Position numbers and translations under genes: made by a program. A model generated the notes under the pieces. The model ran no database searches. It saw only the letters and a list, made by a program, of their open reading frames with translations, and had not been told where the DNA came from. Below, in pieces: positions 24,715 to 61,120 of a stretch of DNA of 64,000 nucleotides (its first letter is position 1; every line of letters starts with the position of its first letter). This DNA comes from a bacterium (lineage in GTDB: Bacteria; UBA10199; 2-02-FULL-44-16; JAAZCA01). Where the stretch lies: the NCBI GenBank assembly GCA_041648665.1, contig JBAZOP010000003.1:5082-69081 (forward strand), given 5' to 3'.

Positions 24715-24726
24715 GGGAGGGAAGCA

Positions 24727-25005: not shown

Positions 25006-25008
25006 AAA

Positions 25009-25433: not shown

Positions 25434-25440
25434 TCTCCGC

Positions 25441-25767: not shown

Positions 25768-25805
25768 CCCGTTGACACCCGATTTCAAGATCGTATCATC
25801 TCGCA

Positions 25806-26120
25806 ATGAACTCAATCGACCGTGGCGTGCCCTGGAAAGTTGGAGAAGGACAGGCCGTCTATTACGGCTGCATGCCAGCCTATCCGCTGGAGCCCGGTAT
25901 CGGCCCGTGGCCTTCTGATGGCGATCCCGGCCCGGTCCCGCTTCCGATCAAACCGCTGAGCCCTGATGAGTTTGCCAAGATGATGGCTGCGCTCACGCCC
26001 ATCCTTGACGAGTTCGCCATCATGCGCGCGCTCGACAAGCTCGACGACGCAGCCAAGCGACGAGTGCAAGCGTGGCTCAACGCCCGTTGCGACATGACCC
26101 CGAGTGCGGTGCCACGATAG
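25806..26120 (+). CDS. hypothetical protein
   Basis: 104-aa ORF. Confidence 0.4.
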   Translation: MNSIDRGVPWKVGEGQAVYYGCMPAYPLEPGIGPWPSDGDPGPVPLPIKPLSPDEFAKMMAALTPILDEFAIMRALDKLDDAAKRRVQAWLNARCDMTPSAVPR

Positions 26121-26161
26121 GCCTTGCAACGTATCGCCGTTTCGCAGTACCCTTCCCAACC

Positions 26162-26839: not shown

Positions 26840-26842
26840 ACC

Positions 26843-39504: not shown

Positions 39505-40377
39505 ATGAAGGTAGCCCGCTTCGGCCCTACTCCGATTTGCGGCGAGCCGCCCGCTGTGCCGAGTCCGTACGACGTGCAGCCCGGCGGCATGAACATGCAG
39601 GCGATGAGGCAAAGTACCATGCAATACGGAAGGCAGCTTCGTGGGCTCGGGGGCGGAGGCCACCATGGGGGCGGCGGTCATCACGGTGGGGGTGGCCACG
39701 GTGGCGGCGGAGGTCACCACTGGGGTGGCGGCGGGATGTACTGGGGTGGCTACCCGTACTACGACGGTCCGCGCACGGGCTTCTTCGAGACCGTGGTTGC
39801 CGACTGCGGTCCGAACTGCATCTGGGACGGCTACTCATGCCTGTGCCCGGACATGCCTCCGAAGCCGATCAAGCCCGAGGCCCCTGCCGCGGTGAAGGGT
39901 CTGCTCGGCCTGGGCGCGGTGCCACGATCGAAGTACCACCACGACTCGTGGTCGGGCGACGATCCCGCGGTGCTCGAAGCCGATGAGCAGGACGACGCGG
40001 TCGGCAACGGCATCTTCGACGGCGCGGGCGCGGCCCCTGTGCAGCACGCTGGCAACGGCGTGTTCGAGGCGAGCTACGCGGAGCCGGGCTACCTCTACAG
40101 GGAGCGCTTCGGGCAGCCCAGCGAGATCCTGGACGCGACAACGGGCAACCCCATCGTCTACCACCCCAACGCGGGACAGTCCTCGCACGAAGACATCCTG
40201 CGCACGTATCGCAGGTGGGACCTGGAGACGCCGCGGCACTACGGTCCCGCGCGCACGCCGCTCCAGGGGCTCGGGCAAGGGGCTTCCGAGACGACAGCTC
40301 TTCTGCCGTACGCCGTGGGAGGGATCCTTCTCGGCGTCGCGGCAGGCATCCTCTACACGGTCGTGAAAGGCAAGTGA
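39505..40377 (+). CDS. Gly/His-repeat protein with C-terminal TM
   Basis: Low-complexity GGGGHHGGGGHHGGGGHGGGGGHHWGGGG. C-terminal TM (LLPYAVGGILLGVAAGILYTVV). Confidence 0.45.
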   Translation: MKVARFGPTPICGEPPAVPSPYDVQPGGMNMQAMRQSTMQYGRQLRGLGGGGHHGGGGHHGGGGHGGGGGHHWGGGGMYWGGYPYYDGPRTGFFETVVADCGPNCIWDGYSCLCPDMPPKPIKPEAPAAVKGLLGLGAVPRSKYHHDSWSGDDPAVLEADEQDDAVGNGIFDGAGAAPVQHAGNGVFEASYAEPGYLYRERFGQPSEILDATTGNPIVYHPNAGQSSHEDILRTYRRWDLETPRHYGPARTPLQGLGQGASETTALLPYAVGGILLGVAAGILYTVVKGK

Positions 40378-40378: not shown

Positions 40379-40753
40379 ATGGACGGCCTTGGCTCATACT
40401 TCAAGTCCTCGCCTCTCGACGGCGTTGCGATGGGTGCCTACTACGCTTCGCCGGTCCCGGCGATCGTCGCGCCCACCCCGATCCTCACCAAGTCGATCCA
40501 GCCCATCTCGTCTCTCGCAGGGACGAGCGGTCTGAGTTCGTTCGGGACAGGATCAATCCTGACCGTGGTGATTGCTGCGGCAGCCGGGTACTTCGTCGGC
40601 AAGCAGCTGGGCTACCCGGTCGCAGGCGCAGTCGCAACGGGGCTGCTCGGCTTGCCCGGCATGCTCGGCGTTGCGGTGTACTCCTCCTACAAGAGGAAGG
40701 GGCTCGCGGTTGCCAACCGCCGTCGCAGCCGTCGTCGTAGGAGCCGCCGATGA
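40379..40753 (+). CDS. Arg-tail membrane protein family member
   Basis: TM helix followed by YKRKGLAVANRRRSRRRRSRR. Confidence 0.5.
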   Translation: MDGLGSYFKSSPLDGVAMGAYYASPVPAIVAPTPILTKSIQPISSLAGTSGLSSFGTGSILTVVIAAAAGYFVGKQLGYPVAGAVATGLLGLPGMLGVAVYSSYKRKGLAVANRRRSRRRRSRR

Positions 40754-41367
40754 GCAAGAATCTCGCATGCTCGAACTGGTGCCAGTTGAACAGCAAGGGC
40801 AGCAGCGACGCGTACCTGCTGTGCCTCAACAAGTGCCCGCAGGAAGGCGTGAAGTGGTCGCCGCCGTCCTCGCTCACGTTCACGGGCAAGACGACTTCCG
40901 GGGTCAGCGTGCCCAGCCCGGTGGCCACGGCCTCCAAGACGATCTCGTCTTCGTCGATCACCCGGCTGCTTCCGACGAAGCCCGCGCCCAGCTTGGTCAT
41001 CGCGGGCAAGGCCTCTTCGGCGACCGCTGAGCAGAGCGCGCCGCTTCCCGACAGCATCTCCCCGTCGCTGGACCCGGGCCCAGGTCCGGGGATGGAGGCT
41101 GAGCTTCCGCCGTCCTGGCTTTCGCAAAACAAGCTGCTGGTCGCGGGGATCGCAGCCGCTGCCATCTTCGCGGGCGTGATGGTCGTGAGAAGCCGGAAGC
41201 GCGCTGTGGCGAATGGGGTAGCGTGGATCGACCGCCTGATTGCCCAGCTGGATGAGCCCAGCAAGCCGATAACGAAAGCCGAGATGAGGGCTCTCAAAGC
41301 CAAGCTCAGGAAGCGATTCAAGCCCGAGACGGGAAAGAGGAAGCGTCAGAAGAGGAGCGGTAGATGA
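40750..41367 (+). CDS. Cys-rich membrane protein with basic C-terminus
   Basis: TM (LLVAGIAAAAIFAGVMVV) followed by SRKRAVANG and a KRKRQKRSGR end. Confidence 0.45.
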   Translation: MSKNLACSNWCQLNSKGSSDAYLLCLNKCPQEGVKWSPPSSLTFTGKTTSGVSVPSPVATASKTISSSSITRLLPTKPAPSLVIAGKASSATAEQSAPLPDSISPSLDPGPGPGMEAELPPSWLSQNKLLVAGIAAAAIFAGVMVVRSRKRAVANGVAWIDRLIAQLDEPSKPITKAEMRALKAKLRKRFKPETGKRKRQKRSGR

Positions 41368-41720
41368 ACGCACTTGGAGCAGCCTTTGGCATATACGACC
41401 CTGCAAAAGTCGTTCGCGCGGCGAAGAACTTCATGGCCGTCACGGGCGGCGACGTGTCCACGCATGTCGTTGCAGCGCGGGCAGGGCTTCGCGGTCTCGG
41501 TGCGGATCCTGCCCCGGCCCCGGCTCCTGCAACGAGCACGGCAGGGGCGGGCACGGTGCTCGCCGTTGTGGGCGGGATCGTGCTGGTGGTGGTCGCGCTA
41601 CGCGGGGCAGCGGGCTGGTACATCGGCAAGCAGTTCAAGCGCCCGTATCTGGGGATCGCCGCGGGTGCGATCGGCGGCGCTCCTGGTCTCGGAATCCTTT
41701 CTCTCTTCCCCGGTAGGTGA
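41364..41720 (+). CDS. small membrane protein
   Basis: 118 aa with two hydrophobic segments. Confidence 0.4.
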   Translation: MNALGAAFGIYDPAKVVRAAKNFMAVTGGDVSTHVVAARAGLRGLGADPAPAPAPATSTAGAGTVLAVVGGIVLVVVALRGAAGWYIGKQFKRPYLGIAAGAIGGAPGLGILSLFPGR

Positions 41721-41723
41721 TTC

Positions 41724-42452
41724 ATGCCGCGCTACCTCCCCATCCGTTCGCCCTTCTACGCGCAGTTCGAGCGCTGGCCGTACACGCGCGGGCCGAACTA
41801 CACGCGGGCGATGTTCCGCGAGCAGGGGCCGGGCGGGTACTTCACGGCGCAGCCGATGAACCGGATGCCACCGCTTCTGGGGCTCGGGTACGTGGGGACG
41901 GGGGAGACTCCTGAGAACTGCACGAAGATTTGCACCGATGGGTGTGGGTCGCTCGACAAGGACTGCTTCAACGGCTGCTACAGCCAGTGTATGGGCATTT
42001 CGGTCCCTGTGACCCCCGACAACAAGAGGGAAGGCGAGACCATCGACTGCAACGCCGCGTGTGCTGGGAAGACCGGAGAGGCGCTCTCCAGGTGCGTGTT
42101 CGATTGCGGCACCGGACGCGCTGTACCGAAGTCTGCGCAGGCCGGTTTCTTCGCGGACTTCTGGTCGAGCCCGGTCAAGATGGTCGGCACGCTCGCCGTT
42201 GTGGGCGGGCTGCTGTGGTGGGTGACGAGCAGGAAGCGAGCGACGGCGAACCCTACGAAGCTCCGCGCTGGGGACACGGTTTATTTTCTGAGCGGGGAAA
42301 GAGAAGGGAAGCTCGCTCGCGTATCGAAGCGGTGGAAGGACAAAAACGGGCACGTTTGGGTGATCTTGAGGGAGCGCGAACCGGGCGCTTGGCAATGGCG
42401 CGCGCGCGAAAGGGATGTTCTCCGGTACGCGGTGAGCGTAGCAACTTTCTGA
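41724..42452 (+). CDS. Cys-rich membrane protein, family-related (SRKRATANP after TM)
   Basis: Multiple CxxxC pairs, a TM (LAVVGGLLWWV), then SRKRATANP and an extra C-terminal domain. Confidence 0.45.
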   Translation: MPRYLPIRSPFYAQFERWPYTRGPNYTRAMFREQGPGGYFTAQPMNRMPPLLGLGYVGTGETPENCTKICTDGCGSLDKDCFNGCYSQCMGISVPVTPDNKREGETIDCNAACAGKTGEALSRCVFDCGTGRAVPKSAQAGFFADFWSSPVKMVGTLAVVGGLLWWVTSRKRATANPTKLRAGDTVYFLSGEREGKLARVSKRWKDKNGHVWVILREREPGAWQWRARERDVLRYAVSVATF

Positions 42453-42462
42453 GGAAATCACG

Positions 42463-43116
42463 ATGAACAAGCACGGCGGCATCTTCAACGCTCTGTCTTC
42501 TCTCGGCTGCGCAGTCGGCTTGGGCGCAGACGCTCCGATCAAGAAGTCGTGTACGTTCGCGACGGGTCTGTACTCCGAGGGCGCGAAGGCGATCCAGCAG
42601 GTGCTCATCAGTCGCGGGGCCACCAAGCTCAAGGCTGACGGGCTGTGGGGACCGTGTTCCGAGAGCGCGTTCGAGAAGGTGACAGGCGGCAAGCTGACCC
42701 AGGCATCGATCCTGGCGCAGTTCAACATCAGCTGTAGCCCGTACATCAAGAACGTGATCGGCACGTCGTGCAGCAACGGCACCGACGCCTATACGCCGCC
42801 TGCCGTGAGCCCGGACGACATCTCGCCCAACATCCCGCCTACCGAGAAGGCTCCTCCTGTCGGCACCGTCGTGTGCCCCCCTGGCACCGATCCGATCATG
42901 CAAGGCACCCAGGTCATGTGCCAAGCGCCGGTCGTGGCGAACCAGCCTCCTCCCCCCGTTGTGGCCCCCGTGCGCGCGAACCTGATTCCCGGCGTGCCCA
43001 ACATGTACCTGGGCATCGGAGTCGGCGTGCTGGTGCTCGGCGGGCTTGCGTACTTCATGCTCAAGCCGAAGACGGCGGCGGCGAATAGGCGGCGGCACCG
43101 AAGGCATCACAGGTAG
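42463..43116 (+). CDS. Arg-tail family: PG-binding-like Cys-rich protein, TM, then AAANRRRHRRHHR
   Basis: N-terminal MNKHGGIFNALSSLG, DGLWGPCSESAFEKV (PG_binding_1-like), TM helix and poly-Arg/His tail. Confidence 0.55.
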   Translation: MNKHGGIFNALSSLGCAVGLGADAPIKKSCTFATGLYSEGAKAIQQVLISRGATKLKADGLWGPCSESAFEKVTGGKLTQASILAQFNISCSPYIKNVIGTSCSNGTDAYTPPAVSPDDISPNIPPTEKAPPVGTVVCPPGTDPIMQGTQVMCQAPVVANQPPPPVVAPVRANLIPGVPNMYLGIGVGVLVLGGLAYFMLKPKTAAANRRRHRRHHR

Positions 43117-43173
43117 CCGATGGATGGCGTCTTCAACACCAACTCGAATCGGTCGTAGACAAAGGACACGGAC

Positions 43174-43938
43174 ATGTCGATTTTTGGAAGCCGAAAGAAG
43201 CAGCTGCGCGGATGCGGATGCCAGGGCGTCGGCCTGGGCGCAGTCGAAGTGCCGTGGTGGTGCTGGAGTACCGAGGGCTTCAAGGCATGTTCCGACGAGT
43301 CCCTCTCTTGGGCGCAGAACGCGTGCAAGGCCGACTGGGAGAACGGTGAGAAGGTCACCAACTCGGTCAACAACGAGCCGTACGCGAACTACGCCGACTG
43401 TGTGGCGCGCACTCAGCAGTACAGGTTCGAGAATGGCTGCATGCCCAAGTGCCCCTCGCAGCAGCCTGGGACGGCGACCACGGCAACGACAACCGGCGGC
43501 TCCGTCGTGTGCCCTCCTGGCCAGTGGCCCGACGCGTCATTCAACAGCTGCGTGAAAAGCTCTGGGGCGTGCTCCGACGCGAACGTGATCAAGAGCGTGC
43601 AGGCGCAGATCGGCACCACGGTGGACGGCAAGTGGGGTCCGAACAGCGCAGCAGCTCTCAAGGCATCCGGCAAGACGTACCAGCAGCTTGCCCCCGGGTG
43701 CTCAGGAGCGGTGCCCGGCGGCGGCACGGGTGGAGGGAGCGGCACGTACAAGCCCCCTGCGACAACCAAGACGCCGATCGGTACGCAACCGGGAGTCGCG
43801 CAGGCCAGCGGTTTTCTCGGCATCCCGCTCATCGCGTGGGCCGGGGTCGCAGCAGTCGCGGGCGTACTGCTGTACGCGAAGTCGAGGAAGAAGCAGGCGG
43901 TCGCAAACAGGCGTCGTCGGCGTCACCATCGCAGGTAG
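43174..43938 (+). CDS. Arg-tail family member (AVANRRRRRHHRR)
   Basis: VDGKWGPNSAAALK PG-binding-like segment, TM and tail. Confidence 0.55.
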   Translation: MSIFGSRKKQLRGCGCQGVGLGAVEVPWWCWSTEGFKACSDESLSWAQNACKADWENGEKVTNSVNNEPYANYADCVARTQQYRFENGCMPKCPSQQPGTATTATTTGGSVVCPPGQWPDASFNSCVKSSGACSDANVIKSVQAQIGTTVDGKWGPNSAAALKASGKTYQQLAPGCSGAVPGGGTGGGSGTYKPPATTKTPIGTQPGVAQASGFLGIPLIAWAGVAAVAGVLLYAKSRKKQAVANRRRRRHHRR

Positions 43939-43947
43939 GAGACCACA

Positions 43948-44694
43948 ATGAGTCGCATGGGAATCTTCACGGCGCTCAACGGCGCAGGCTTCGGCGGCTT
44001 CCTGGGGCTCGGCCTGACGCCAGCAGAGCAGTACGCGGCAACGTGCAAGCAGAACTGCGAGAACATCCCCGGCACGCAGACCGTTGCGGAGTGCCAAGCC
44101 GACTGCGACAAGTTCACCGCCGCTGCGGTGACATGCGCTCCAGCGTGCGCACAGTTTCGCCAGGACTCGAACGAGTGGGTCTACTGCATCCAGAAGTGCC
44201 ACGGGCTGACCCCTTCGCAGGCGTACGACGAAGCGCAGAAGTCGCTGTGTTCCAAGCAGGGCATGACGTACTCGTGGCTTGAGAACAAGTGCGTCGATAC
44301 GAACGCGTATAAGAGCTGTCCCGCTGGGACCGTCTACGCGATCTACCCTGACGGCAATCGGTGCATCGGCATCAACACCGATCTGACGAAGACGACGTGC
44401 CCTGCTGGCACCTCTCTGAAGATCGTGCCGTCCACGACTGGGGGGCCATCGGGGCAGGCATGTGTGTCCCCTGTGACGCCGACCCCTGCGAAGAAGACGC
44501 CTGTTCCGGTGAAGCCCAATCCTGTCATCGTAGGAGACGGTGGCGGCGGGGGCGGGACCTTGCTTGCTGGCATGGGCACCGGCTGGATGCTCGTGGGCGT
44601 CGGCGCGCTTGCGCTCATCGGAATCGTCGTGCTCGCGAAGAAAAAGAAGAAGCCGCTGGGCGCTGCGCCCAACAGGCGGCGAAGAAGGAGATAG
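43948..44694 (+). CDS. Arg-tail family member (AAPNRRRRRR)
   Basis: MSRMGIFTALNGAG N-terminus, Cys-rich domain, Gly run, TM, KKKKK and tail. Confidence 0.55.
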   Translation: MSRMGIFTALNGAGFGGFLGLGLTPAEQYAATCKQNCENIPGTQTVAECQADCDKFTAAAVTCAPACAQFRQDSNEWVYCIQKCHGLTPSQAYDEAQKSLCSKQGMTYSWLENKCVDTNAYKSCPAGTVYAIYPDGNRCIGINTDLTKTTCPAGTSLKIVPSTTGGPSGQACVSPVTPTPAKKTPVPVKPNPVIVGDGGGGGGTLLAGMGTGWMLVGVGALALIGIVVLAKKKKKPLGAAPNRRRRRR

Positions 44695-44696
44695 TC

Positions 44697-45350
44697 ATGC
44701 GTGAGGGCGGCATTTTTGATCTTCCGTCAGCGCTCGGCATCGAAGTCGCGATGAGCGACGCCGTCACCGAGATGGACAGCTGCAACCTCTCCGGGACGTT
44801 CTCTGAATCGGCCCAGTGGCTCCAGAACCTCCTGAAGGAGAAGGGCGCACTGTCCCTCGTCGTGGACGGCAAGTGGGGGCCGTGCTCCGAGAGCGCGTTC
44901 TACGGACTGTTCGGCGTTCGCACGAGCCAAGCCTCCGTTGCGGAGAAGACCGGCCTGTCGTGTGCGAAGTTCGTGAACTACTACGGTACCGTTGGCGGAA
45001 ACTGCAACGGCAGCGACATCATCTACGAGCAGCAGGGTACGCCGCCTCCCGCTCCGACCGGGACGAAGAAGGTCGCCGTCATCAAGAAGGCTGAGCCCAA
45101 GCCGGTCAGCCTTTCCGTGGTGAAGTCCCCGTTCAAAATGGCGACGGCAACGCCCCCCACACAGGTCGTGCAAGCCGACACAGCTGGCACTTCCAAGACG
45201 TGGATCTACGTGATCGGAGGGCTCGCGCTGCTCGGCATCGTCGGCTTTTTCTTCCTCAAGAAGAAGTCCCCTGCTCCGGTCGCGCCGCCCCCCGCCATCC
45301 CCAACAGGCGTCATCGCCGCCGGTCTCACCGCATTCGGCTTCTCAAGTAA
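44697..45350 (+). CDS. Arg-tail family member (AIPNRRHRRRSHR)
   Basis: MREGGIFDLPSALG N-terminus, VVDGKWGPCSESAF, TM and tail. Confidence 0.55.
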   Translation: MREGGIFDLPSALGIEVAMSDAVTEMDSCNLSGTFSESAQWLQNLLKEKGALSLVVDGKWGPCSESAFYGLFGVRTSQASVAEKTGLSCAKFVNYYGTVGGNCNGSDIIYEQQGTPPPAPTGTKKVAVIKKAEPKPVSLSVVKSPFKMATATPPTQVVQADTAGTSKTWIYVIGGLALLGIVGFFFLKKKSPAPVAPPPAIPNRRHRRRSHRIRLLK

Positions 45351-45514
45351 CCCGCGCCAGACGACCGTCTCTTGTTGGAACGGGCCACTGTCCTGCGTCT
45401 TCGGGGCGATTGAGTCCGGGCTTCGACATGGGCCGCGGAATCTAGCCGTTGCGGGCTCAGTGTCAAGGCCTCGTGCGCTGGACGAAACCCGTCATCCCGT
45501 GGATAATCAGGCCC

Positions 45515-46384
45515 ATGGCTAATCGTGGTGGCATCTTCAAGGGTACGGCTCTCGGGCTTCTTGGCGCTGGCAGCATCGAATGCACGGGCACGACGCTGTT
45601 CAACGCGGTCAAGGCTGCACTTGTGGCCAAGGGCTACACCGGGCTCGCTCTCAAGAACAGCTGGGACGGCTGCTTCCAGGCGGCGATCGTCAAGGAGCTT
45701 GGTCATCCGATGCTCACGGTCGGCGACGTGCGTACGCTCACCGGCAGCGGCTGCACGAAGGGCTACTTCGATGCGGGCCTGAACGACATGAACCCGCTCG
45801 TCGCGGGCGCTGGGCCGACCGACGTGGCCTCGTGCTCGGACGGAAGCGACGTGAAGGGCAAGCTGCCGACGACGATCGATCCGTCTGGACCGCTGAGCAC
45901 GGACTGCTTGGGTGGCTGCGCGAAGCTGCCGTTTCTGTCTGCGGACTGGCAGGGGTGCGTCACCAAGTGCGGCGGCAGCATCCTTCAGCCCCCGGCTCCT
46001 ACGCCCGGCACTCCCGCGTGCGCTCCCGGGATGTTCTACGACACGAACGCGGCCAGCTGCATGCTCATGATCGATCCGCTCAACTGCGGATCGAAGTGCA
46101 ACCAGTTCCCGGCGTTCAGCTCCGAGTGGGTACAGTGCATGGTCAACTGCGGCGCGAAGGCAGTCGGTCCGCAGGGCACCCCCGTTGTGGTGCCCGGCAC
46201 GAACCCTCCCGTGAAGACCGGCATGTCGATGGCAGACGTGTTCGGCAAGAACTGGCTGGTCATCGCCGCAGCGCTTGCGATCGGTGTCGGCGCAGTCGTC
46301 TACTTCAACAACAAGAAGCGGAAGGAACGACTGGGGGCAGTCGCAGCGCCGAACCGAAGGCGTCGCCGTCGTCATCACCGCTAG
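45515..46384 (+). CDS. Arg-tail family member (AAPNRRRRRRHHR)
   Basis: MANRGGIFKGTALG N-terminus, Cys-rich domain, TM and tail. Confidence 0.55.
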   Translation: MANRGGIFKGTALGLLGAGSIECTGTTLFNAVKAALVAKGYTGLALKNSWDGCFQAAIVKELGHPMLTVGDVRTLTGSGCTKGYFDAGLNDMNPLVAGAGPTDVASCSDGSDVKGKLPTTIDPSGPLSTDCLGGCAKLPFLSADWQGCVTKCGGSILQPPAPTPGTPACAPGMFYDTNAASCMLMIDPLNCGSKCNQFPAFSSEWVQCMVNCGAKAVGPQGTPVVVPGTNPPVKTGMSMADVFGKNWLVIAAALAIGVGAVVYFNNKKRKERLGAVAAPNRRRRRRHHR

Positions 46385-46393
46385 GAGATCACC

Positions 46394-47395
46394 ATGCCGC
46401 TGTCCGATGTCGAATCGTTGGCGAAGCAGGTGCAGCCGCTCTACCCGGAGATGGCGACGCCGGAAGATCGGCTCATGGCGGCGTACAAGGCCGCGCGCGC
46501 AGCGTTGATCGAGACGTTGCCCAAAGGCACGACCGTTGATCCGTTGGCAGCAACGATCGCGCAGCAGACCGTGGAGCAGCAGTTCGATGCGCGCGTCCCG
46601 GCTCTTCAGTCGTCCTTCCAGAACAACACCGATCTCTCGGCTGACGATGCGGCGAAGCTGACCGCTGAGCAGAGCAGGCAGCACTACCTGTACAAGTACC
46701 TCATCGCGTGCGACGGGCTCGGCCTGTACGCGAGCGGGTACGCAAAGCAGCTCGATGCCAACGGGGAGTTCCCGGGCGACTACAACAAGAGCGTCGAGGA
46801 CAGAATCCGCATCTTTTCCGAGATCACGCATGCGCACGGGACAGGGGCACTCGTCGGTCTGGTGAACAACGAAGCCGTCGTGCAGCAGGCTGCCCAGCGA
46901 GCCGCGATGTCGGGGCTCGGCGGAGTCGGGCAGGGGCAGGTGACCACGTTCATCGGATCCAAGGGCATGACGATCACCCTGCCGTCTTCGAGCGGCGCAG
47001 CCGGGCTGGGCGCACCCTTGCCATGGCAGGCCTGGGTTTTGATCGGTGTCGGCACCATCGTCGCAGGCGTCGTCATCTACCTGCTGGGAAGCAAGCGGAT
47101 CGAGACGACAGCTGAGACGACCAGAATCATCTGCCTCAAGCTCATCGAGAGCGGGGACAAGGCAGCCGCCAAGAGCTGCATCGACCTCCAGAAGGAAGCG
47201 ACAAACATCGGCGGCGTTGGCGACATCATTGGCAAGGAGACCATGCAGACGCTCACGAAGTACGCGTTCGTCGGTGGTCTGCTCATCCTCACCGTGATGT
47301 TCCTGCCGACGATCGTGGGCTCCGTCACCCAGGCGCAGACGACGTACCAGATGCACAAGGCTGTGCGCGCGGCAGCGAACCGTCGAAGGCGATGA
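46394..47395 (+). CDS. Arg-tail family member, divergent (AAANRRRR)
   Basis: 333 aa with two TM helices and a C-terminal KAVRAAANRRRR. Confidence 0.5.
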   Translation: MPLSDVESLAKQVQPLYPEMATPEDRLMAAYKAARAALIETLPKGTTVDPLAATIAQQTVEQQFDARVPALQSSFQNNTDLSADDAAKLTAEQSRQHYLYKYLIACDGLGLYASGYAKQLDANGEFPGDYNKSVEDRIRIFSEITHAHGTGALVGLVNNEAVVQQAAQRAAMSGLGGVGQGQVTTFIGSKGMTITLPSSSGAAGLGAPLPWQAWVLIGVGTIVAGVVIYLLGSKRIETTAETTRIICLKLIESGDKAAAKSCIDLQKEATNIGGVGDIIGKETMQTLTKYAFVGGLLILTVMFLPTIVGSVTQAQTTYQMHKAVRAAANRRRR

Positions 47396-47796
47396 TGCGG
47401 TACTCGGTCCACAACGTGATGCGCGGCGGGTTCGACTACTACGACGGGCCGGATGTCACTCCGATCAACGATGACCAGCCCACGCCCTCGTTCGACTCCT
47501 CCATCCGCACCCCGCTCGGGATCCCCGCGAGCCTCGCAGGCAGGCCTCTGCCTCCCAACGCCTCCATCCGCGGGCACGGCGCGACGGCGCAAGGCGCGGT
47601 GTCTTCGGGCAAGCGCGGATCGTGGTCCACCACCGCAGCCAGGAATGGCGGCATGCCGTCTGGCATCGGCGCTGCGCTCGGGCTCGACGACTCCACGAGC
47701 AGGATGCTCCAGGCCGTTGTGGGCATCGTGGGGTTCGCCGGAATCTTCTATCTCATCACCCGTTTCGGCGACAGGGAGCGTAAACGTGTCCGCTAG
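47392..47796 (+). CDS. small membrane protein with basic C-terminus
   Basis: TM (VVGIVGFAGIFYLI) followed by GDRERKRVR. Confidence 0.4.
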   Translation: MMRYSVHNVMRGGFDYYDGPDVTPINDDQPTPSFDSSIRTPLGIPASLAGRPLPPNASIRGHGATAQGAVSSGKRGSWSTTAARNGGMPSGIGAALGLDDSTSRMLQAVVGIVGFAGIFYLITRFGDRERKRVR

Positions 47797-48355
47797 CCGC
47801 AACTTCTCGACCGAGCCGTCGCGTCGCACCGTTGTTCTCGACCTACCCGAGATATACGAACGTGCAAAGCAGATGCGCAAGGTCTTCCAGGGTGAGAAGC
47901 CAAAGAAGCGCGTAGAGATGCCATTTACGTGGCCCAGCTACTTCGTGTACGTGGGCCGCGCGCTCTCCGAGCTGTACTTCTCCGACAAGAAGCTCAACGG
48001 CGGGAAGTGGGAGATTTACAAGCACGTTGCGGAGGCTGGGCAGGATCTCTACGTCAATCCGAAGATCACGACGCTCATCAAGGATGACGGGCGCAAGATG
48101 CAGTACCGCGGCGACCGCTTCTGTCTGGAGGGCGCGATGCCGAAGGACATCGCCGTGCTCGCAGAGAACAGGGGCGTGCAGGTTGTGACGAAGAGCGGCG
48201 AATACTACGAGATTCGCATGCCGCACTCCACAACGGCGGCAGCGGTGCACCCCGAGACGGGCGAGACGTTCCTGCTTGTCTACTCGAAGGAAGGTGTGCA
48301 TTTCATCATCACGGGCGACGAGCTGACGATTGGGAAGGACGGCATTGCCGGATGA
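47786..48355 (+). CDS. hypothetical protein
   Basis: GTG start 8 nt after GGGAG, overlapping the upstream gene by 11 nt. Confidence 0.4.
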   Translation: MSASRNFSTEPSRRTVVLDLPEIYERAKQMRKVFQGEKPKKRVEMPFTWPSYFVYVGRALSELYFSDKKLNGGKWEIYKHVAEAGQDLYVNPKITTLIKDDGRKMQYRGDRFCLEGAMPKDIAVLAENRGVQVVTKSGEYYEIRMPHSTTAAAVHPETGETFLLVYSKEGVHFIITGDELTIGKDGIAG

Positions 48356-48714
48356 GAGCCAACGACGCGCAGGTGCTTCAGGTGTGGACCGCCGCGTGGT
48401 CCTGGAAGGATGCTGCGGAGCCCTGCGAGTACGTGTTCGCCAGGACGGAGTCGGAGTGCCTGGGTCTTCTCGGGCGCAGACTTCACAAGGCCAAGAATGT
48501 GCTCGTGAGGCTCAAGATCGTGCGCAACGGGAAGCTGGCGTCCACATACTTGAAGGACGCGAAGCCCAGGGTTGTGGACATCTTCGACCCCGAGCTTCGG
48601 GATTTCGCCAAGGACTTGCTGCCCGACTTCAACAGGGCGGGTGCGGCGGTCCGAAGTTCGGACGAATACGCCGATCTCGTCGAGTGCGCCGACCTCAGTC
48701 TCGGCGACCTCTGA
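48352..48714 (+). CDS. hypothetical protein
   Basis: ATGA-coupled to the upstream gene. 120 aa. Confidence 0.45.
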   Translation: MRANDAQVLQVWTAAWSWKDAAEPCEYVFARTESECLGLLGRRLHKAKNVLVRLKIVRNGKLASTYLKDAKPRVVDIFDPELRDFAKDLLPDFNRAGAAVRSSDEYADLVECADLSLGDL

Positions 48715-48832
48715 GCGCGCCCTCGGGAACTTGACACCGTTGCGGATCTTGCCGTAGACTGCCTCTCACGTAGCAAGAGCCTCGTTGGCCCAGGGTGACG
48801 AGTTCAGCTCCCGCGAACTGAGCGGAGTTGTA

Positions 48833-48862
48833 TTCCAACGGCGTGCAGGCCGATATCTGCAA
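48833..48862 (+). promoter_or_regulatory. fifth copy of the 30-bp element (reverse-complement orientation, so on the coding strand), 10 nt upstream of the ATG of the polybasic gene
   Basis: TTCCAACGGCGTGCAGGCCGATATCTGCAA is the reverse complement of the repeat consensus. Confidence 0.5.
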
Positions 48863-48872: not shown

Positions 48873-51305
48873 ATGGCACGAGGAAGGATTTTCCGGATCA
48901 CGAAGGCCCAGGCAAAGGCCTACGAAATCCTGGATCCGCCCTCGACGCGCTCGGCCCGCCCGAACCCAGGCGTCACGGCCATCATGGGGATCACCAACGG
49001 TCGCGGAGCTGCGAAGCGCGGGGCTCGCAAGGGCAAGGCTCGCAAGTCGGTCCGCATGCTCGGCGGCATCAGCTGCCCCAAGACGGCTCCGAAGAAGCAC
49101 CGCATGGCAGGGGCGACGAAGCGCTCAGACTACGCGCTGCCGCAGTGCTTCCACTACCCGGTGCGCACGCGCGGCAAGGCTTCCGTCTTGAAGATCCGGC
49201 GAGCCCTGACCCGCTACGGCACGCACAAGAGCAGGTACTCGCCCGCCGTCCGCAGGCAGATCGAGCGCGGGATCGCGAAGGCTGCGAAAGAAGCCGGGAT
49301 GACGAGTCCCGTGGCGATGAAGTACCGCAAGAAGTTCGCACTGGCGAATGCAAAAGGAGAAAGCCCCATGTTCGTCGTCCCCAATGCCGCGCGCAAGCGC
49401 GCAAGGCGCAAGTCCAAGTCGCGCAAGCTGTCCCCGGCTCATGCCTTCTTCTTGTACCCGACCACCAAGGGCAAGATCGGCGCGTCGGCGTCCCCGAACC
49501 GCAAGCGCAAGGCGCGCAAGGCCCGGAAGGGTGCTCGCAAGCTGAAGTTTGGCTCGCCCGCATGGCAGAAGAAGTTCAACCCGCTGTACGGCGGCAAGGG
49601 CAAGACGCGCAAGGGCAAGAAGTCGACTGCCAAGCGTCGGACCGCGCGTCGGATGGTTACGTCGGGCGTTCGTCGCGTGACCGTTCGTCGTGGCAAGGGC
49701 AAGCGCCGCAGCGGTCTGAGCGTCGCTCTGCGCAACATGTCGATCCTTCCTGCGGTGCCGAACAAGCGTCGCCGCTCGACCAAGAAGTACAGCGCCGCGT
49801 GGCATCGCAAGATGACGCATGCGGTCGCGAACCGCTATCGTCGGCGCGCTCGGCGCAACGCAGAGGGCGAGGGGATCTTCTTCCCGGGCGAGGGCGGAGG
49901 TTCGTTCATGGACGAGCCCTCCACCATCATGTCCGAGGCGCAGGAGAAGAAGCTCGCTGCTGCCGCCACTGCCGAAGGCATCGCTCAAGACATGTTCAAG
50001 ACTCAGGCGGATTTCGACGCGTGGTTCGCGAACATGTACAAGAGCAAGACGTTCCGCAAGTTCTACATGTCATTCAGACGAAGGCGCACTGCGCTCTCCA
50101 AGCGAGGTAGGAAGATGGCAACCAGGAAGAAGGGCAAGAAGGCTGCGGGCCGCAAGCCTCGCAAGGGCAAGAAGGCTCGCAAGGCACGCAAGGGAACCCG
50201 CAAGCTGAAGTTCGGCTCGCCCGCATGGCGCAAGAAGTACGCGCGCAAGATCGCGGCGGGTCGGCGCAAGGCGAAGCGGCACGGCACGCGCAAGGCTGCG
50301 AAGCGTCGCAAGAGCGGCTCGCGCAGCAAGCGCCGGGTCACGCGTCGTCGAGGCACCGCACGTCGTCGGAGCGCAGCGCGCCGCCGCACGGGTGGTCGTA
50401 GGCTCAAGTTCGGCTCGAAGGCGTACAACAAGAAGTACGCGGCCAAGCGCAAGCGCAACCTTCGGTCGGCGAAGCGTCACGGCAAGCGCAGGGCTCGCCG
50501 GAACTTCAGCTTCCGTGCCATCCCGAACCAGCTGCTCATGCGCGTCAAGGCCATGGCGATCCCTGGGCTCATCGCGCTCGGTGGCTACGCCATCCATCGC
50601 GTTGTGACCAAGGTTCTGTCCAAGGCCATCGGCGGCACGGTCACGAGCTACGCCGAACCCCTGAGCGGGCTCGTCGCGATCGCGGCTGGCACCTGGGCGG
50701 TTGGCAAGTTCCTGCCGCAGCACTCTCATGCTGCGATCATGGGCATGGCCGTCAGCTTCGGCGCGTTGCTCCTCAAGAGCTTCCTGCCCGACGTTGCGAC
50801 CTACCTGGGCATGGGCTCGGTCGGATCGCAGAACCAGCGCGTGCGCTGGGGCATGCAGGGACCGGAGTTCATGCAGGCGGCTGCTGGCCCGGAGTTCATG
50901 CAGGCGGCTGCTGGCCCGGGGTTCCTCCAGGCGGCTGCTGACTACTACCAGCCCGCGAGCGGGATCGGCGAGTACGTCAGCGATGGTTCGCTCTCTCCCG
51001 TGAGCGACTTCGGCGAGTACGTCGCGAGCAATCTCGACGTGAGCGGCTGGGGTGACTACGAGGTGAGCACCCAGTACCAGACCGGCGCGGACGGCTACGG
51101 AGCCATCAACGACGGGATCCAGCCGGGCGGCAATCTCGATCAGCAGTTCAACATCATGGAAGCGGCGGCGGGGCTCGGTCTGAACAGCCCCGGCAGCTCG
51201 TCCACCTACGTCCCGCACGAGGGCATGCGCAACGTGGCCTCTGCGGAATCGAGCGACAGCTCGGGCGTGTTCGATGTCGGCGGAGGCAACGGCGTCCTGG
51301 GCTGA
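48873..51305 (+). CDS. 810-aa polybasic (protamine/histone-like) repeat protein with TM segments and an acidic C-terminal domain
   Basis: The first ~550 aa are extremely Lys/Arg-rich, with three ARKARKGxRKLKFGSPAW(Q/R)KK(F/Y)-type repeats. These are followed by hydrophobic helices and then GPEFMQAAAGPEFMQAAAGPGFLQAAA repeats in an acidic tail. The 30-bp element lies 10 nt upstream. Confidence 0.6.
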   Translation: MARGRIFRITKAQAKAYEILDPPSTRSARPNPGVTAIMGITNGRGAAKRGARKGKARKSVRMLGGISCPKTAPKKHRMAGATKRSDYALPQCFHYPVRTRGKASVLKIRRALTRYGTHKSRYSPAVRRQIERGIAKAAKEAGMTSPVAMKYRKKFALANAKGESPMFVVPNAARKRARRKSKSRKLSPAHAFFLYPTTKGKIGASASPNRKRKARKARKGARKLKFGSPAWQKKFNPLYGGKGKTRKGKKSTAKRRTARRMVTSGVRRVTVRRGKGKRRSGLSVALRNMSILPAVPNKRRRSTKKYSAAWHRKMTHAVANRYRRRARRNAEGEGIFFPGEGGGSFMDEPSTIMSEAQEKKLAAAATAEGIAQDMFKTQADFDAWFANMYKSKTFRKFYMSFRRRRTALSKRGRKMATRKKGKKAAGRKPRKGKKARKARKGTRKLKFGSPAWRKKYARKIAAGRRKAKRHGTRKAAKRRKSGSRSKRRVTRRRGTARRRSAARRRTGGRRLKFGSKAYNKKYAAKRKRNLRSAKRHGKRRARRNFSFRAIPNQLLMRVKAMAIPGLIALGGYAIHRVVTKVLSKAIGGTVTSYAEPLSGLVAIAAGTWAVGKFLPQHSHAAIMGMAVSFGALLLKSFLPDVATYLGMGSVGSQNQRVRWGMQGPEFMQAAAGPEFMQAAAGPGFLQAAADYYQPASGIGEYVSDGSLSPVSDFGEYVASNLDVSGWGDYEVSTQYQTGADGYGAINDGIQPGGNLDQQFNIMEAAAGLGLNSPGSSSTYVPHEGMRNVASAESSDSSGVFDVGGGNGVLG

Positions 51306-51434: not shown

Positions 51435-52199
51435 ATGGCAAAGATTCTCAACATCCGCGAACGTGTTCATCAACCCTTTCGTGACGCGCTGTGTCGGACA
51501 GCCGGTCTGTTTCAGGGTGCCCTGAATCAGACGACCGACTTGTTCATCACGCAGGGGCGTGACGAGGGCTTCACGAACCTCAAGACGAGCGCCGTGCTTC
51601 CGAACGACTCGTCCATGATCATCCTCGCGGCGAGGGTGCTTCAGTGGTTCCGCGCTCCGGTGCGCCGCAACTTCAATCCGGATGGCACCGTTCTGACGAA
51701 CGGCGACTACGGTCCCATCGGCCTCGCGGCGTGGGTGTGGCCGAACGGTGCGGGCGCAGTCGCGCTCGGCAACGCCCCGGCGAACTACGAGGACGTGTAC
51801 CGCATGCACTGGCAGTGCGCCGAGGGTCTGTTCTGGACGATCGGCGCTGGCGAGAAGGACTCGCTGCGCAGCATGCCGACGATGTACTTCCCCATGGGCG
51901 GCGGTCTGCACGGGGACATCGGCGGGGCGACGGACCTCATCCACTTCAACAACGGCTCACCGAGCCACACGTCGATCCTTCGGATCGCGCGCGCTATCAC
52001 CATCACCCCGCGCCAGCTGATCAAGGCGCAGGTGACCGCCGTGTCGTACCCGGCTGGTGGAAACCAGACGATCTTCGGCACTTCGACGGCGCAGGGGCGC
52101 GACATGCTGAACCCGATCAGCAACCTGAACTGCGTCGATGCGATGGGCAAGGTCGTTGCCCTCGTGATCGACGGGTTGCTGAGCCGCGACGTTCAGTAA
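51435..52199 (+). CDS. candidate coat protein (paralog A)
   Basis: 254 aa starting MAKILNIRERVHQPFRDALCRTAGL. About 70 % identical to the next gene by eye. Confidence 0.35.
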   Translation: MAKILNIRERVHQPFRDALCRTAGLFQGALNQTTDLFITQGRDEGFTNLKTSAVLPNDSSMIILAARVLQWFRAPVRRNFNPDGTVLTNGDYGPIGLAAWVWPNGAGAVALGNAPANYEDVYRMHWQCAEGLFWTIGAGEKDSLRSMPTMYFPMGGGLHGDIGGATDLIHFNNGSPSHTSILRIARAITITPRQLIKAQVTAVSYPAGGNQTIFGTSTAQGRDMLNPISNLNCVDAMGKVVALVIDGLLSRDVQ

Positions 52200-52277: not shown

Positions 52278-53096
52278 GTGGCCAAGATTCTGAACATTCG
52301 AGAGAGGGTTCACCAGCCCTTTCGCGACGCGCTGTGCCGCACGGCGGGCCTCTCGCGAGGCAACCTGAACCAGACAACCGACCTGTTCATCGCGCAGGGC
52401 CGGGACGAAGGTTTCACGAACCTCAAGACGAGCGCCGTACTTCCGAACGACGCGTCCATGATCATCCTCGCGGCCCGCGTCATGCAGTGGTTCCGCAGGC
52501 CGGTCCCTCGCGATATGGCCGATGCCACCAACGTCACCCTGAACGGTGACTACGGGATGATCGACGGAACGGTCCCGTTCGCGTGGCCGAATGCGGTCGG
52601 TGGCGTAGCAGAGGGAAACGCTCCTGGGCTACACAACGATGTGTACCGGTTGCACTGGCAGTGCGCCGAAGGTCTGTTCTGGACGATCGGCGCTGGCGAG
52701 AAGGACTCGCTGCGCAGCATGCCGACGATGTACTTCCCGGCAGGTGGCGGGCTTCACGGCAAGATCGGCGCAAGAACAGGCATCATCTGGTGGTTCGACA
52801 GGCAGGGGCAGTACGTCCACTTCCATGCCCCGCTGATCCACTACAACAACGGCTGTCCGACGCACACCGCGATTTTGCGGCTCGCGCGCGCCATCACCAT
52901 CACCCCGCGCCAGCTGATCAAGGCGCAGGTGACGGCGGTCCGCTATCCCGATGGCGGCAACGCCACGCTTTTCGGGACAACGACCGCCAATGGCCGGGAC
53001 ATGCTCAACCCGATCGACAACCTCAACGCCGTCGATGCGTGCGGCAAGGTCGTGTCCCTGATCCTGGACGGCCTCCTGAGCCGTGACGTGCAGTAG
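52278..53096 (+). CDS. candidate coat protein (paralog B)
   Basis: GTG start after GGAAAGGAAGG. 272 aa, same N-terminus as paralog A. Confidence 0.35.
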   Translation: MAKILNIRERVHQPFRDALCRTAGLSRGNLNQTTDLFIAQGRDEGFTNLKTSAVLPNDASMIILAARVMQWFRRPVPRDMADATNVTLNGDYGMIDGTVPFAWPNAVGGVAEGNAPGLHNDVYRLHWQCAEGLFWTIGAGEKDSLRSMPTMYFPAGGGLHGKIGARTGIIWWFDRQGQYVHFHAPLIHYNNGCPTHTAILRLARAITITPRQLIKAQVTAVRYPDGGNATLFGTTTANGRDMLNPIDNLNAVDACGKVVSLILDGLLSRDVQ

Positions 53097-58761: not shown

Positions 58762-59460
58762 ATGTCGCAGCCCCCGCCGAAGGTCGAAACGCCTACCCCT
58801 TCCGCCGATACCTTGAACGATAGCCCAGCCGAAACAATTCCCGCTCCTTCGCCTGCGGAAGCGCCGAAAGATGAGCTTGAGGCAATGGCCGAAGGGTGCG
58901 AGGCCAACCTCTCGATCATGGTGCGTGGGGGGACGAGCACCTACGCCCACGACATGGCCGAAAAGAAGCGCTGGGCGGAAGCCGAAGCGCGCCGCGACAT
59001 GCTGGAGCGCTATCAGCAGATCGCCAACACGCCCATCGAAAAGGGCGGCGGCGTCATGTACTCGAAGCAGTTCGCCGATCCGCTTTCGTCTCCGCGTGTG
59101 CTTCTTCGATACGTCAACTCGAAGAAGGAAACGCTTTGCGAGATGCTCTGCGAGCTGATCGAAAGCGACACGACGGGCGATCTCATCCTTCAGTTCGTGT
59201 GCCCGGAGTGCGTGAAGCGCGGCGTACACATGGATGCGGCGCAGTGCACGGTGCGAGACACGCACCGCAAGTGGTTCGTCGATACGAAGTGCACCGGGGA
59301 GATGCGCAAGGCAGAGACCGTGGACATGCGCGGGAACAAGATCCTGGAGCCGTATCTGCACGCCGGGGACATCGTGGACACGGAGATGCTCACCTGCGAC
59401 AGGTGCGCGACGGCGTACAAGATCCACAAGAACATGCTTTACCGCGTATGGGGCAAGTGA
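58762..59460 (+). CDS. hypothetical protein with CPEC...C...C pairs
   Basis: 232-aa ORF. Confidence 0.4.
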   Translation: MSQPPPKVETPTPSADTLNDSPAETIPAPSPAEAPKDELEAMAEGCEANLSIMVRGGTSTYAHDMAEKKRWAEAEARRDMLERYQQIANTPIEKGGGVMYSKQFADPLSSPRVLLRYVNSKKETLCEMLCELIESDTTGDLILQFVCPECVKRGVHMDAAQCTVRDTHRKWFVDTKCTGEMRKAETVDMRGNKILEPYLHAGDIVDTEMLTCDRCATAYKIHKNMLYRVWGK

Positions 59461-60806
59461 TGGGTCTCGAAGAGTTCATCATCGACGAGCAGTGCGAAGG
59501 CTCTATCGAGCAGCAGCTCGCAGAGCACGGCGACATGTGGAAGGAAGGGCGGGCCGCGAAGCACGAGCGAGGCATCGTCTACAAGGCCCCGTGGGAGACG
59601 CAGCACGACGGCGTGTGCATCGCGGCGCGTCGGCATGCGCGCGCGCTCCGGATGACGGGCGTGCCGGTGTTCCTGCAATCGGACAGCTTCACCCACTCGA
59701 ACCTGGGCGTTGTGTCGGAGGTCGAGTATTTCAGCCTCCCCGGGCTGGTGCGCGCGGAGGTGGATGGCATCACGCAGGTGGATCACGGACAGTCGCTTCT
59801 GCTCATCCGGCACTGCGTGCCGACGCGCGGGGCTCTTGAAGCTCTCGTCTATCCTCCCGTGATGCGGCTTCTGAACCATGAGCAGCTCACAGTGGTCCGC
59901 AAGGCGATGATCTTGTTCAGCGCGTTCGAGACCGACAAGCTCGACGAAGACGCCGTGCGGTACATGAACATGCTCGGGCGCGTCTGGGTAACGTGCGACA
60001 AGAACAAGCAGTGGCTCTCGGCAGCAGGCGTGGACGAGGCCCACATCGTTGTGGTGCCCCACCCCTTCTACGGCAAGGACCCGATGGCGCAGCCCAGGAC
60101 TGGCAAGCGCACGGGACTCTTCAGGTTTCTCAACGTCTCGAAGTGGGAGCCCCGCAAAGCGCAGCACGACCTTATCGGCGGATTCCTGCTGGCTTTCGGC
60201 CCAGCCGATGACGCAGAGCTGGTCCTGAAGTGCAACCCGTTCGCACGCGTCGAGGGCTACCCCGCGGACTGGCAGGCCTCCATCGAGCAGTGGGCCGCGA
60301 ACGAGAAGGTTTCCGCACGTTGGACCAAGGAGAAGATATACGAACGCGTAAAGGTGCTATGGAAAGCCCACATGACGCGTGCAGAGCTGGCGCAGCTCTA
60401 CCGTGAGTGCGACGTGTACGTGAGCACTGGGCGGGCCGAAGGCTTCGATTTGCCCGCATTCGACGCGAAGCTCTCGGGGATGAGAATGATCCATGCAGCG
60501 AGCGGCGGGCCTGAGATGTTTCACCAGCCGGGCGTGGATGTGCTGATCGATCCGACTGCGGAGACGCAGCCGTTCCACCCGATCTACAACGCCGCCCCGG
60601 ATGCGAGGTGGTGTGGGTTCGACGCGACGCACGTGAGCCACGCGCTGATGGCTGCGTACGCGTGCTTCCGCGATCCGATCCCTGCGTTCGACCGGAGCAG
60701 GTACACGATGAAGGCAGTCGGGGCCGTGATGCGCCAGTCGTGCAACGAGCTTCTGAAGGAGCACGGTACGGACATCTCGAACGTGAACGTGGACGCCTCG
60801 CCATGA
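59460..60806 (+). CDS. GT-B fold glycosyltransferase (GT4-like)
   Basis: C-terminal STGRAEGFDLPAFDAKLSGMRMI matches the E-x7-E-type donor-binding region. Confidence 0.5.
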   Translation: MGLEEFIIDEQCEGSIEQQLAEHGDMWKEGRAAKHERGIVYKAPWETQHDGVCIAARRHARALRMTGVPVFLQSDSFTHSNLGVVSEVEYFSLPGLVRAEVDGITQVDHGQSLLLIRHCVPTRGALEALVYPPVMRLLNHEQLTVVRKAMILFSAFETDKLDEDAVRYMNMLGRVWVTCDKNKQWLSAAGVDEAHIVVVPHPFYGKDPMAQPRTGKRTGLFRFLNVSKWEPRKAQHDLIGGFLLAFGPADDAELVLKCNPFARVEGYPADWQASIEQWAANEKVSARWTKEKIYERVKVLWKAHMTRAELAQLYRECDVYVSTGRAEGFDLPAFDAKLSGMRMIHAASGGPEMFHQPGVDVLIDPTAETQPFHPIYNAAPDARWCGFDATHVSHALMAAYACFRDPIPAFDRSRYTMKAVGAVMRQSCNELLKEHGTDISNVNVDASP

Positions 60807-61120
60807 AGCAAGTCTTCCCCCACAGGTTCTCAGCAGCGTTGGGGCTGAAGGTGCTCAGGCTTGCCGAAGCGCAGCTGCGAGAGCAGCATCCGGCTCTCGG
60901 GCTGACGACGATATGGGAAGAGCAGAAGAGCCGCGTGGGGTTCGGGTTCACCGCTTTGACGACACGGTTTGCTGGGGTGATCACGTCGAAGGATCGAGGT
61001 CTGCACCTGGAGATGGACGTGCCGACGATCTTCAAAGCGTGGATCCCTCTCGCCAAGCAGGTGATCGAACGCGAGGTCGGCAAGTGGATCGCGCGTGTCG
61101 AGAAGGGGGAACTCGGATGA
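60803..61120 (+). CDS. hypothetical protein
   Basis: ATGA-coupled to the upstream gene. 105 aa. Confidence 0.4.
   Translation: MKQVFPHRFSAALGLKVLRLAEAQLREQHPALGLTTIWEEQKSRVGFGFTALTTRFAGVITSKDRGLHLEMDVPTIFKAWIPLAKQVIEREVGKWIARVEKGELG

Follow-up and report, generated by a model that had tools for sequence, protein, structure and literature searches.

A polybasic protein encoded beside a jelly-roll capsid-like gene: candidate membrane-tethered genome-condensing protein of a lineage of large bacterial viruses

The window analysed here, a 64,000-nt stretch covering 64 of the 134 kb of its contig (JBAZOP010000003.1), contains on its forward strand a gene (hereafter the target, 48873..51305) whose 810-aa product joins a polybasic N-terminal arm to hydrophobic helices and an acidic tail. 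This architecture is conserved across a whole protein family, and the target is strictly linked to a capsid-like gene. We think there is about an even chance (a probability of roughly 0.5) that the product is a structural virion protein, one that is membrane-anchored, neutralises or tethers the genome with its polycationic arm and may dock to the capsid with its acidic tail. Incorporation into virions, membrane insertion and topology, DNA binding and capsid docking are all properties that we infer. The source lineage appears from its sequences to consist of uncultivated, large (about 110–180 kb), tailless and probably membrane-containing bacterial viruses.

The locus contains three genes that matter most for this reading:

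48873..51305 (+): coding sequence of the 810-aa protein with polybasic, hydrophobic and acidic-tail regions (open reading frame (ORF) call, composition, GC content at third codon positions (GC3), identity to WC683_02475)
51435..52199 (+): downstream partner, probably the major capsid protein (254 aa, single jelly roll)
52278..53096 (+): second jelly-roll gene in tandem, its 272-aa product a paralogue with 74% identity to the first (DNA repeats 77–81%)

A member of the target's family lies directly 5' of the jelly-roll gene, on the same strand, in 27/27 loci with upstream DNA (24 IMG/VR contigs plus three further metagenomic loci). The same holds for the window, in which we found nothing resembling a terminator between the two. 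Of the proteins that we examined, the jelly-roll protein shows the strongest conservation. It best matches capsid proteins from viruses with an internal membrane (SPV1 VP4 and VP10, P23-77 VP17/VP16, HCIV-1 VP7 and HHIV-2), with SPV1 VP4 as the top structural match. The target's neighbour has a jelly-roll fold, as does the major capsid protein in the structural module of SPV1- or Sphaerolipoviridae-like viruses. Relatives vary in copy number, some having one jelly-roll gene and others two (L002, L005, L007).

The jelly-roll gene is carried by 25 IMG/VR viral contigs (54–182 kb, with a cluster at about 110–180 kb). Among genome assemblies it occurs solely on contigs of metagenome-assembled genomes (MAGs; L030–L034), whose bin taxonomy conflicts (Myxococcales, Methanomicrobiales, Pseudomonadales, Pirellulales), and neither isolate genomes nor 50,697 phage records contain it. 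Because the bin taxa are unrelated, these are most likely free viral contigs that were mis-binned. Peptidoglycan-binding domains encoded on a related contig, together with sigma-70-like promoter boxes, suggest that the host is bacterial.

The target is a real gene. The initial annotation called an 810-aa gene here, and the ORF is present at exactly those coordinates when counted from its ATG. An upstream in-frame TTG at 48828 would lengthen it to 825 aa, but homologues begin MA.GRIFKITK in the alignment, which supports the ATG as the start. The product (88.9 kDa, isoelectric point (pI) 11.8) is identical to the annotated 'MAG: hypothetical protein WC683_02475 [bacterium]' of a 134,065-bp contig. 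Long spurious ORFs do arise in GC-rich DNA, and several overlap this locus in other frames, so one could suppose a chance open frame or a low-complexity pseudogene. The probability of this is negligible: GC3 is 0.84, like that of the other coding frames of the window (63% GC), several segments are confidently modelled by AlphaFold2 (AF2), an identical protein is annotated, and the conservation data (16 homologues in a first, word-indexed search and 320 family representatives with conserved motifs) refute it.

Lys and Arg make up 23% of the whole protein. Residues 1–545 contain 179 of these basic residues versus 17 Asp and Glu (pI 12.0, net charge about +162), residues 546–650 are hydrophobic and Gly/Ala-rich, and residues 651–810 are acidic and rich in Gly and aromatics. 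The features within the gene are:

48873..49013 (+): N-terminal conserved motif GRIF.ITK.QA..Y ... NPGVTAIMGITNGRGA, residues 1–47 (family alignment; AF2 confidence low)
49050..49352 (+): folded alpha/beta domain within the basic region, residues ~60–160 (AF2 per-residue confidence (pLDDT) 84–95)
49509..49575 (+): basic repeat copy 1, ARKARKGARKLKFGSPAWQKKF (DNA and protein repeat analysis)
49926..50102 (+): helical segment, residues ~352–410, with the motif AAA..EGIA..MF..Q.DFD.WF..M.KSKTFRK.Y (pLDDT 80–96; conserved in the alignment)
50172..50238 (+): basic repeat copy 2, 87% nucleotide identity to copy 1 (DNA repeat analysis)
50370..50436 (+): basic repeat copy 3, degenerate, 61% nucleotide identity (DNA repeat analysis)
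50517..50783 (+): three hydrophobic helices rich in Gly/Ala, just after a nearly invariant RRN; putative membrane anchor (AF2)
50823..51302 (+): disordered acidic tail, residues 651–810, pI 4.05, ending SGVFDVGGGNGVLG (charge profile, AF2, sequence)
50859..50939 (+): tandem 27-nt repeat in three copies, GPEFMQAAA / GPEFMQAAA / GPGFLQAAA (DNA repeat analysis)
50967..51071 (+): three acidic-aromatic motifs, GIGEYVSDG, DFGEYVASN and WGDYEVST (sequence inspection)

The initial annotation described about 550 residues dominated by Lys and Arg. The residue counts agree with this description, but the region is not uniform: folded modules lie within it, so it is not one low-complexity tract, and its charge profile has a net-acidic stretch at residues 331–390, which the modelled helical segment overlaps. 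The alpha/beta domain is limited to closer relatives (it is conserved in P0003–P0007 in the alignment) and has no Pfam, PDB or fold match. In the region of the N-terminal motif, an NPGVT-like pattern occurs in 39/166 family members.

Three long ARKARKG-type repeats had been reported, and we found them at both the protein and the DNA level. Their consensus is K/RLKFGS.A(W/Y)..KK(F/Y), with KLKFGSPAWQKKF at residue 223, KLKFGSPAWRKKY at 444 and RLKFGSKAYNKKY at 510, and they sit in 67-nt DNA copies at 49509, 50172 and 50370 (identity 100/87/61%), the third being degenerate at that level of identity. The triple GPEFMQAAA noted earlier corresponds to the tandem 27-nt array, and the acidic SDG/EYV repeats are located in the C-terminal tail as GEYV, GEYV and GDYEV at residues 701, 716 and 729. 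As for the three or four membrane helices that had been proposed, AF2 models three (residues 549–586, 594–613 and 615–637), which are marginal as transmembrane (TM) segments. They are weakly hydrophobic, with one window reaching a Kyte–Doolittle score ≥ 1.6 and crude Hessa-type sums of +2.4 to +6.6, and on this sequence evidence they are likely, though not certain, to be membrane segments.

The target belongs to no family that we searched. Against Pfam-A, the whole protein (E ≤ 0.01) and five sub-segments (E ≤ 10) gave at best a NikA-like match with an E-value of 0.075, below the cut-off. The 38,880 profiles of PHROGs v4 assigned no family to the target or its nine neighbours, tblastn against 50,697 phage records gave no match, and PDB sequences and chains gave no meaningful match. 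The literature that we searched describes neither this virus clade nor this protein family.

The word-indexed search had returned 16 homologues. An exhaustive HMMER search, using a profile built from the target's C-terminal 270 residues, returned 320 representatives at 50% identity clustering, 207 of them with E ≤ 1e-30. This family is known from metagenomes only, and its conserved C-terminal domain is always at the very C-terminus. The target shares what characterises the family: a match to the C-terminal profile, a polybasic N-terminal extension and a position directly 5' of a jelly-roll gene. In the following statistics, values for the N-region come from 123 full-length members and those for the helices, the tail and the motifs from 156 members:

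N-region length: mean 400 aa (range 150–700 aa)
N-region net charge: mean +125, standard deviation 28
Sequence before the helices: nearly invariant RRN (alignment)
Members with 2–3 hydrophobic Gly/Ala-rich segments: 88%
Net charge of the tail: −10.5 ± 5.5
Copies of G[ETD]Y per tail: mode 3
Copies of [QE]A[AN]AG per tail: mode 3–4

N-regions can be aligned among close relatives only (BLAST coverage, alignment), and they grow by internal duplication, e.g., the three 67-nt copies of the target and a run of GGKRKARKSRK units in P0012. Because they are unalignable, duplication-grown and yet uniformly polybasic, selection seems to act on their charge or composition and their length rather than on their sequence. 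We considered whether total N-region charge stays constant while length drifts and dropped the idea, as charge tracks length (coefficients of variation 0.22 vs 0.25; n = 123).

Asn precedes 23% of basic runs in the family, a 6-fold enrichment over the 3.8% background, and the same N-(R)n motif ends the tails of neighbouring membrane proteins. A motif common to both suggests one interaction mode, which might be, for example, N-capped basic helices. On a related 177-kb contig (L004), the target homologue (7201–9831 (+), 876 aa) has about a dozen xNRRRR(R) repeats, and a Cas12f1-like_TNB (TnpB-type) gene (2816–4276 (+)) lies 3 kb upstream of it.

In the mechanism we propose, the Gly/Ala-rich central helices would hold the protein in the lipid membrane of the virus or attach it to that membrane. 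The N-terminal arm (~545 residues, about +162) would then act as a polycation that binds the phosphate backbone of the genome non-specifically, and its partial neutralisation of charge would condense the DNA and tether it to the membrane. Single-pass membrane proteins encoded nearby would use their Arg-rich tails in the same manner. The disordered acidic tail, with its ~3 QAAAG and ~3 GEY motifs, could be a multivalent docking module, and its possible partners are pseudo-hexameric jelly-roll capsomers or other virion proteins. The protein would be abundant in the virion. By simple arithmetic, a 134-kb genome has 268,130 phosphates, all of which ~1,650 copies of the target would neutralise, and it is plausible that a few hundred copies would cover a substantial fraction of the genome charge.

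The closest functional analogue of the target, without homology, is ascovirus P64 (SfAV-1a ORF048). P64, a 64-kDa virion protein with a pI of 12.2 and tandem basic repeats, equals the capsid protein in abundance, and experiments have shown that it condenses a 100–200 kb genome (PMC6163548). Both proteins are large (64 vs 89 kDa) and very basic (pI 12.2 vs 11.8), both combine tandem basic repeats with a non-repeat module, and both come from viruses with 100–200 kb double-stranded DNA (dsDNA) genomes. However, Pfam scans of the target gave no match to the vs2C-ad motif (pfam08793, cited in PMC6163548) by which P64 is defined. The P64 repeats are Ser/Arg-rich, SPSQRRSTS(V/K)(A/S)RR, whereas those of the target are of the Lys/Arg/Ala-rich ARKARKG.RKLKFGSPAW type. 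The target has hydrophobic helices and an acidic QAAAG/GEY tail, neither of which is described for P64, and the hosts differ (insect for P64, apparently bacterial for the target).

Several other viral proteins are polycations that neutralise packaged dsDNA, as we propose for the target: adenovirus VII, V and mu, baculovirus P6.9, and chlorovirus A278L, A282L and A437L. They differ from the target, as we picture it, in being soluble, mostly small proteins of eukaryotic viruses that have no membrane anchor. Basic virion proteins neutralise chlorovirus DNA (PMC3281028), and adenovirus protein V also forms a bridge from core to capsid (PMC10081844). None of the Pfam families of these proteins, those of the adenovirus core (pVII, V, pX) included, had a match in the target. 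SPV1 (Portogloboviridae) has a jelly-roll shell, a lipid layer and, inside this membrane, a VP1–DNA nucleoprotein core, but it is a 20-kb archaeal virus.

The C-terminal domain of histone H1, protamines and the bacterial H1-like proteins Hc1 and AlgP share a disordered, Lys/Arg/Ala-rich make-up and condense DNA by neutralising its charge. The target resembles them in composition and adds folded domains, hydrophobic helices and an acidic tail. Linker-histone and protamine Pfam models did not match the whole target or its five sub-segments, so the earlier description of the protein as protamine- or H1-like applies to its composition, not to membership of a linker-histone, protamine or adenovirus core family. 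Since the defining domains of the P64, adenovirus core and protamine families were searched for and not found, the target lies outside all three. PRD1 P16 and P30 and the minor capsid proteins of PBCV-1 and ASFV, all membrane-anchored proteins of viruses with an internal membrane, are encoded beside capsid genes and form extended, partly disordered links between membrane and shell. They are not known to be polybasic, and we detected no sequence or fold similarity between them and the target.

The membrane-tethered DNA-condensing role suggested by the initial annotation is partly supported, and it is the reading that we too place first. It draws on the protein's architecture, its synteny with the capsid gene, a membrane-rich module without tailed-phage hallmark genes and the P64 analogue, and it is weakened by the marginal helices. 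Several considerations weigh against it. DNA binding and presence in the virion are inferences. The hydrophobic helices are weak TM candidates, and because two of them are one residue apart in AF2, the model does not fix the number of passes or place arm and tail on opposite faces. The positive-inside rule would place both the basic arm and the Arg tails on the cytoplasmic face, and PRD1-style assembly turns that face to the capsid. By analogy, such a topology would point the arm at the capsid and not at the DNA. Charge scales with N-region length (r = 0.74), meaning that total charge is not specially conserved. The window covers 64/134 kb, so a packaging ATPase may sit elsewhere in the genome. 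Phages are also not known to use basic proteins for neutralisation (PMC3281028), which makes the reading a priori less likely. A broader scenario, in which the clade assembles around a protein-neutralised nucleoid tethered to the membrane by the target and the Arg-tailed proteins, instead of pumping naked DNA into a preformed shell, is one that we put forward only tentatively and consider rather doubtful. It would be a chromatin-like strategy, in the style of SPV1 and ascoviruses, that has not been described for any bacterial virus.

The topology argument could also be taken to mean that the target is a capsid–membrane linker, matrix, scaffold or tape-measure protein. Its arm would then lie between membrane and capsid, binding anionic lipids (phosphatidylglycerol, cardiolipin) and the inner capsid, and the protein would organise or size the shell without touching DNA. 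The positive-inside rule sets the arm on the cytoplasmic face, which is the capsid side in PRD1-type assembly, and other observations also fit: strict co-location with the capsid gene, long predicted helices, repeated docking-like motifs, and an N-region that varies from 150 to 700 aa across a clade whose contigs also differ in size. SPV1, moreover, has a sub-capsomer protein array between membrane and shell. We nevertheless consider such a function unlikely. At +125 to +185, the charge of each molecule far exceeds what lipid or protein docking needs and resembles that of nucleic-acid polycations, the jelly-roll proteins carry almost no net charge (+2 and +4), and tape-measure proteins such as PRD1 P30 are not known to be polybasic.

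Two further possibilities are less probable again, and we would be surprised by either. One is a precursor polyprotein that a viral protease cuts, e.g., at Asn-Arg runs or Gly-Gly sites, into protamine-like core peptides and a membrane/tail fragment, by likeness to adenovirus pVII and pX. Adenain cleaves adenovirus core proteins at (M/I/L)XGG-X sites. The Asn ahead of basic runs (23% vs 3.8%), the RRN before the helices, the GG-containing G-[IV]-F motifs at protein termini in the module and the layout of folded islands among basic tracts are what such a precursor might show. However, the ORFs of the window gave no match to a protease family, an Asn ahead of an Arg run could just as well be a helix N-cap, and the family alignment has no conserved cleavage-site consensus; processing would in any case be compatible with a DNA-condensing role rather than opposed to it. 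The other possibility is a role outside the virion, as a membrane-associated polycation in the infected cell that, for example, compacts or sequesters the host nucleoid or RNA, or organises a membrane-bound replication or assembly site. A polybasic protein would be expected to bind any nucleic acid, and a 28-bp upstream element (described below) ties the target to two non-membrane, net-acidic proteins (−14 and −16), so this regulon is not purely one of capsid genes. Against this, a capsid-like gene is adjacent on the same strand in 27/27 loci, and the target sits inside the membrane/capsid module, not in the replication module at 21581–28021.

The membrane-rich character of the structural module comes from at least 12 predicted membrane proteins upstream of the target, eight of which are single-pass with [AP]NRRRR(R)HHR-type tails:

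40379–47796 (+): Arg-tail membrane-protein array, genes 40379–40753, 42463–43116, 43174–43938, 43948–44694, 44361–45350, 45449–46384, 46394–47395 and 47392–47796

The array proteins have a C-terminal TM helix followed by an Arg tail such as ANRRRRRHHR, and several have Cys-rich N-terminal domains (10–15 Cys). The array had been described as directly adjoining the target. It is real, with at least eight genes, but two soluble genes (47843–48355 and 48352–48714) intervene. The 29 related loci, which are short and do not cover the equivalent region, contain eight matches to Arg-tailed membrane proteins. Our searches recognised none of the 73 predicted window ORFs as a terminase, portal, HK97 capsid or tail protein or as an FtsK/HerA packaging ATPase. 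For the last of these, the structural module of the window gave no Pfam or PHROG match and contains no convincing Walker-A protein. A packaging ATPase of the FtsK/HerA type is present in Sphaerolipoviridae and PRD1-like viruses; none has been reported for SPV1.

A G-[IV]-F-[polar] motif recurs near protein termini of the structural module (9 matches vs 2.5 expected from shuffles) in the forms MNKHGGIFNAL, MSRMGIFTAL, MANRGGIFKG, MREGGIFDL, MGNGIFDG, NGIFDGAG and SGVFDVGGG. It occurs at the N-termini of 42463, 43948, 45515, ~44694 and 13447–14265(−), twice internally in 39505–40377 and at residues 797–800 of the target. N-terminal GGIF motifs are essentially lacking in the short related loci. 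This could be a docking, signal-like or cleavage motif. In the 39505–40377 (+) protein, a possibly metal-binding Gly/His repeat, GGGGHHGGGGHHGGGGHGGGGGHH, precedes the motifs NGIFDG and NGVFE, after which a TM helix closes the C-terminal end.

Elsewhere in the window, the replication module (21581–28021 (+)) encodes an AEP primase, an AAA_25 helicase and a ResIII/DEAD helicase, and there are also genes for a sigma factor and DnaJ. Sugar genes (2345–3472 (−) and 58896–62277 (+)) encode a GDP-mannose 4,6-dehydratase, a dTDP-sugar epimerase-type match and two GT4 glycosyltransferases, which suggest glycosylation of virion or host components.

Two possible regulatory features lie 5' of the target:

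48731..48760 (+): sigma-70-like box TTGACA-18-TAGACT, 10/12 matches (promoter scan)
48835..48862 (+): conserved 28-bp element CCAACGGCGTGCAGGCCGATATCTGCAA with inverted repeat GCAG-N8-CTGC (word-7 blastn)

The element, which had been reported as a conserved 30-bp sequence before the gene, ends 10 nt 5' of the target's ATG. Four more copies (92% identity) are on the minus strand at 16695–16720, 16766–16793, 17991–18018 and 18064–18091, preceding genes 14266–16677(−) and 17275–17958(−), so that all five copies in the window are just 5' of start codons. Two of the five carry GCGG-N8-CCGC, in which both arms of the inverted repeat have changed. The element was not found in related loci. It may be a late promoter or operator, or may form a hairpin in the 5' untranslated region. 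A Sigma70_r2 protein is also encoded in the window, and the exact 36-mer around the sigma-70-like box occurs in the window just once.

The first element-sharing gene on the minus strand, 14266–16677(−), encodes an 803-aa protein of no known family with a charged, long coiled-coil centre (REMEMRQREFERLIEIEKREKEREVERVR...) and Q/P-rich flanks, which looks like a scaffold. The second, 17275–17958(−), encodes an acidic protein of ~215 aa. Their net charges are −14 and −16, respectively. We considered the 803-aa protein as a stoichiometric counter-ion or chaperone on charge grounds and rejected this, as it is just mildly acidic (−14).

What is new here is the joining of a very large polybasic arm to a hydrophobic anchor and an acidic repeat tail, in a protein that is a universal hallmark of its clade and is encoded beside a single-jelly-roll capsid gene. 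The host is apparently bacterial, and protein-mediated genome neutralisation is not an accepted mechanism in that setting: the general view is that dsDNA phages rely on small cations and polyamines, rather than on proteins, to neutralise the DNA they package (PMC3281028). The polycation strategy is otherwise known from large DNA viruses of eukaryotes (ascovirus P64, adenovirus, chlorovirus) and from the archaeal SPV1. The target offers a hallmark gene with which to find and classify an apparently undescribed lineage of large tailless viruses (320 representatives, 25 IMG/VR contigs). Its N-region can serve as an expressible reagent for DNA-condensation tests, and the repeated tail motifs yield testable predictions on how the membrane is coupled to the jelly-roll lattice. 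If our preferred reading is true, the target, with its conserved 60-kDa polycationic arm, would be the first protein proposed to condense the genome of a bacterial virus while tethering it to a membrane.

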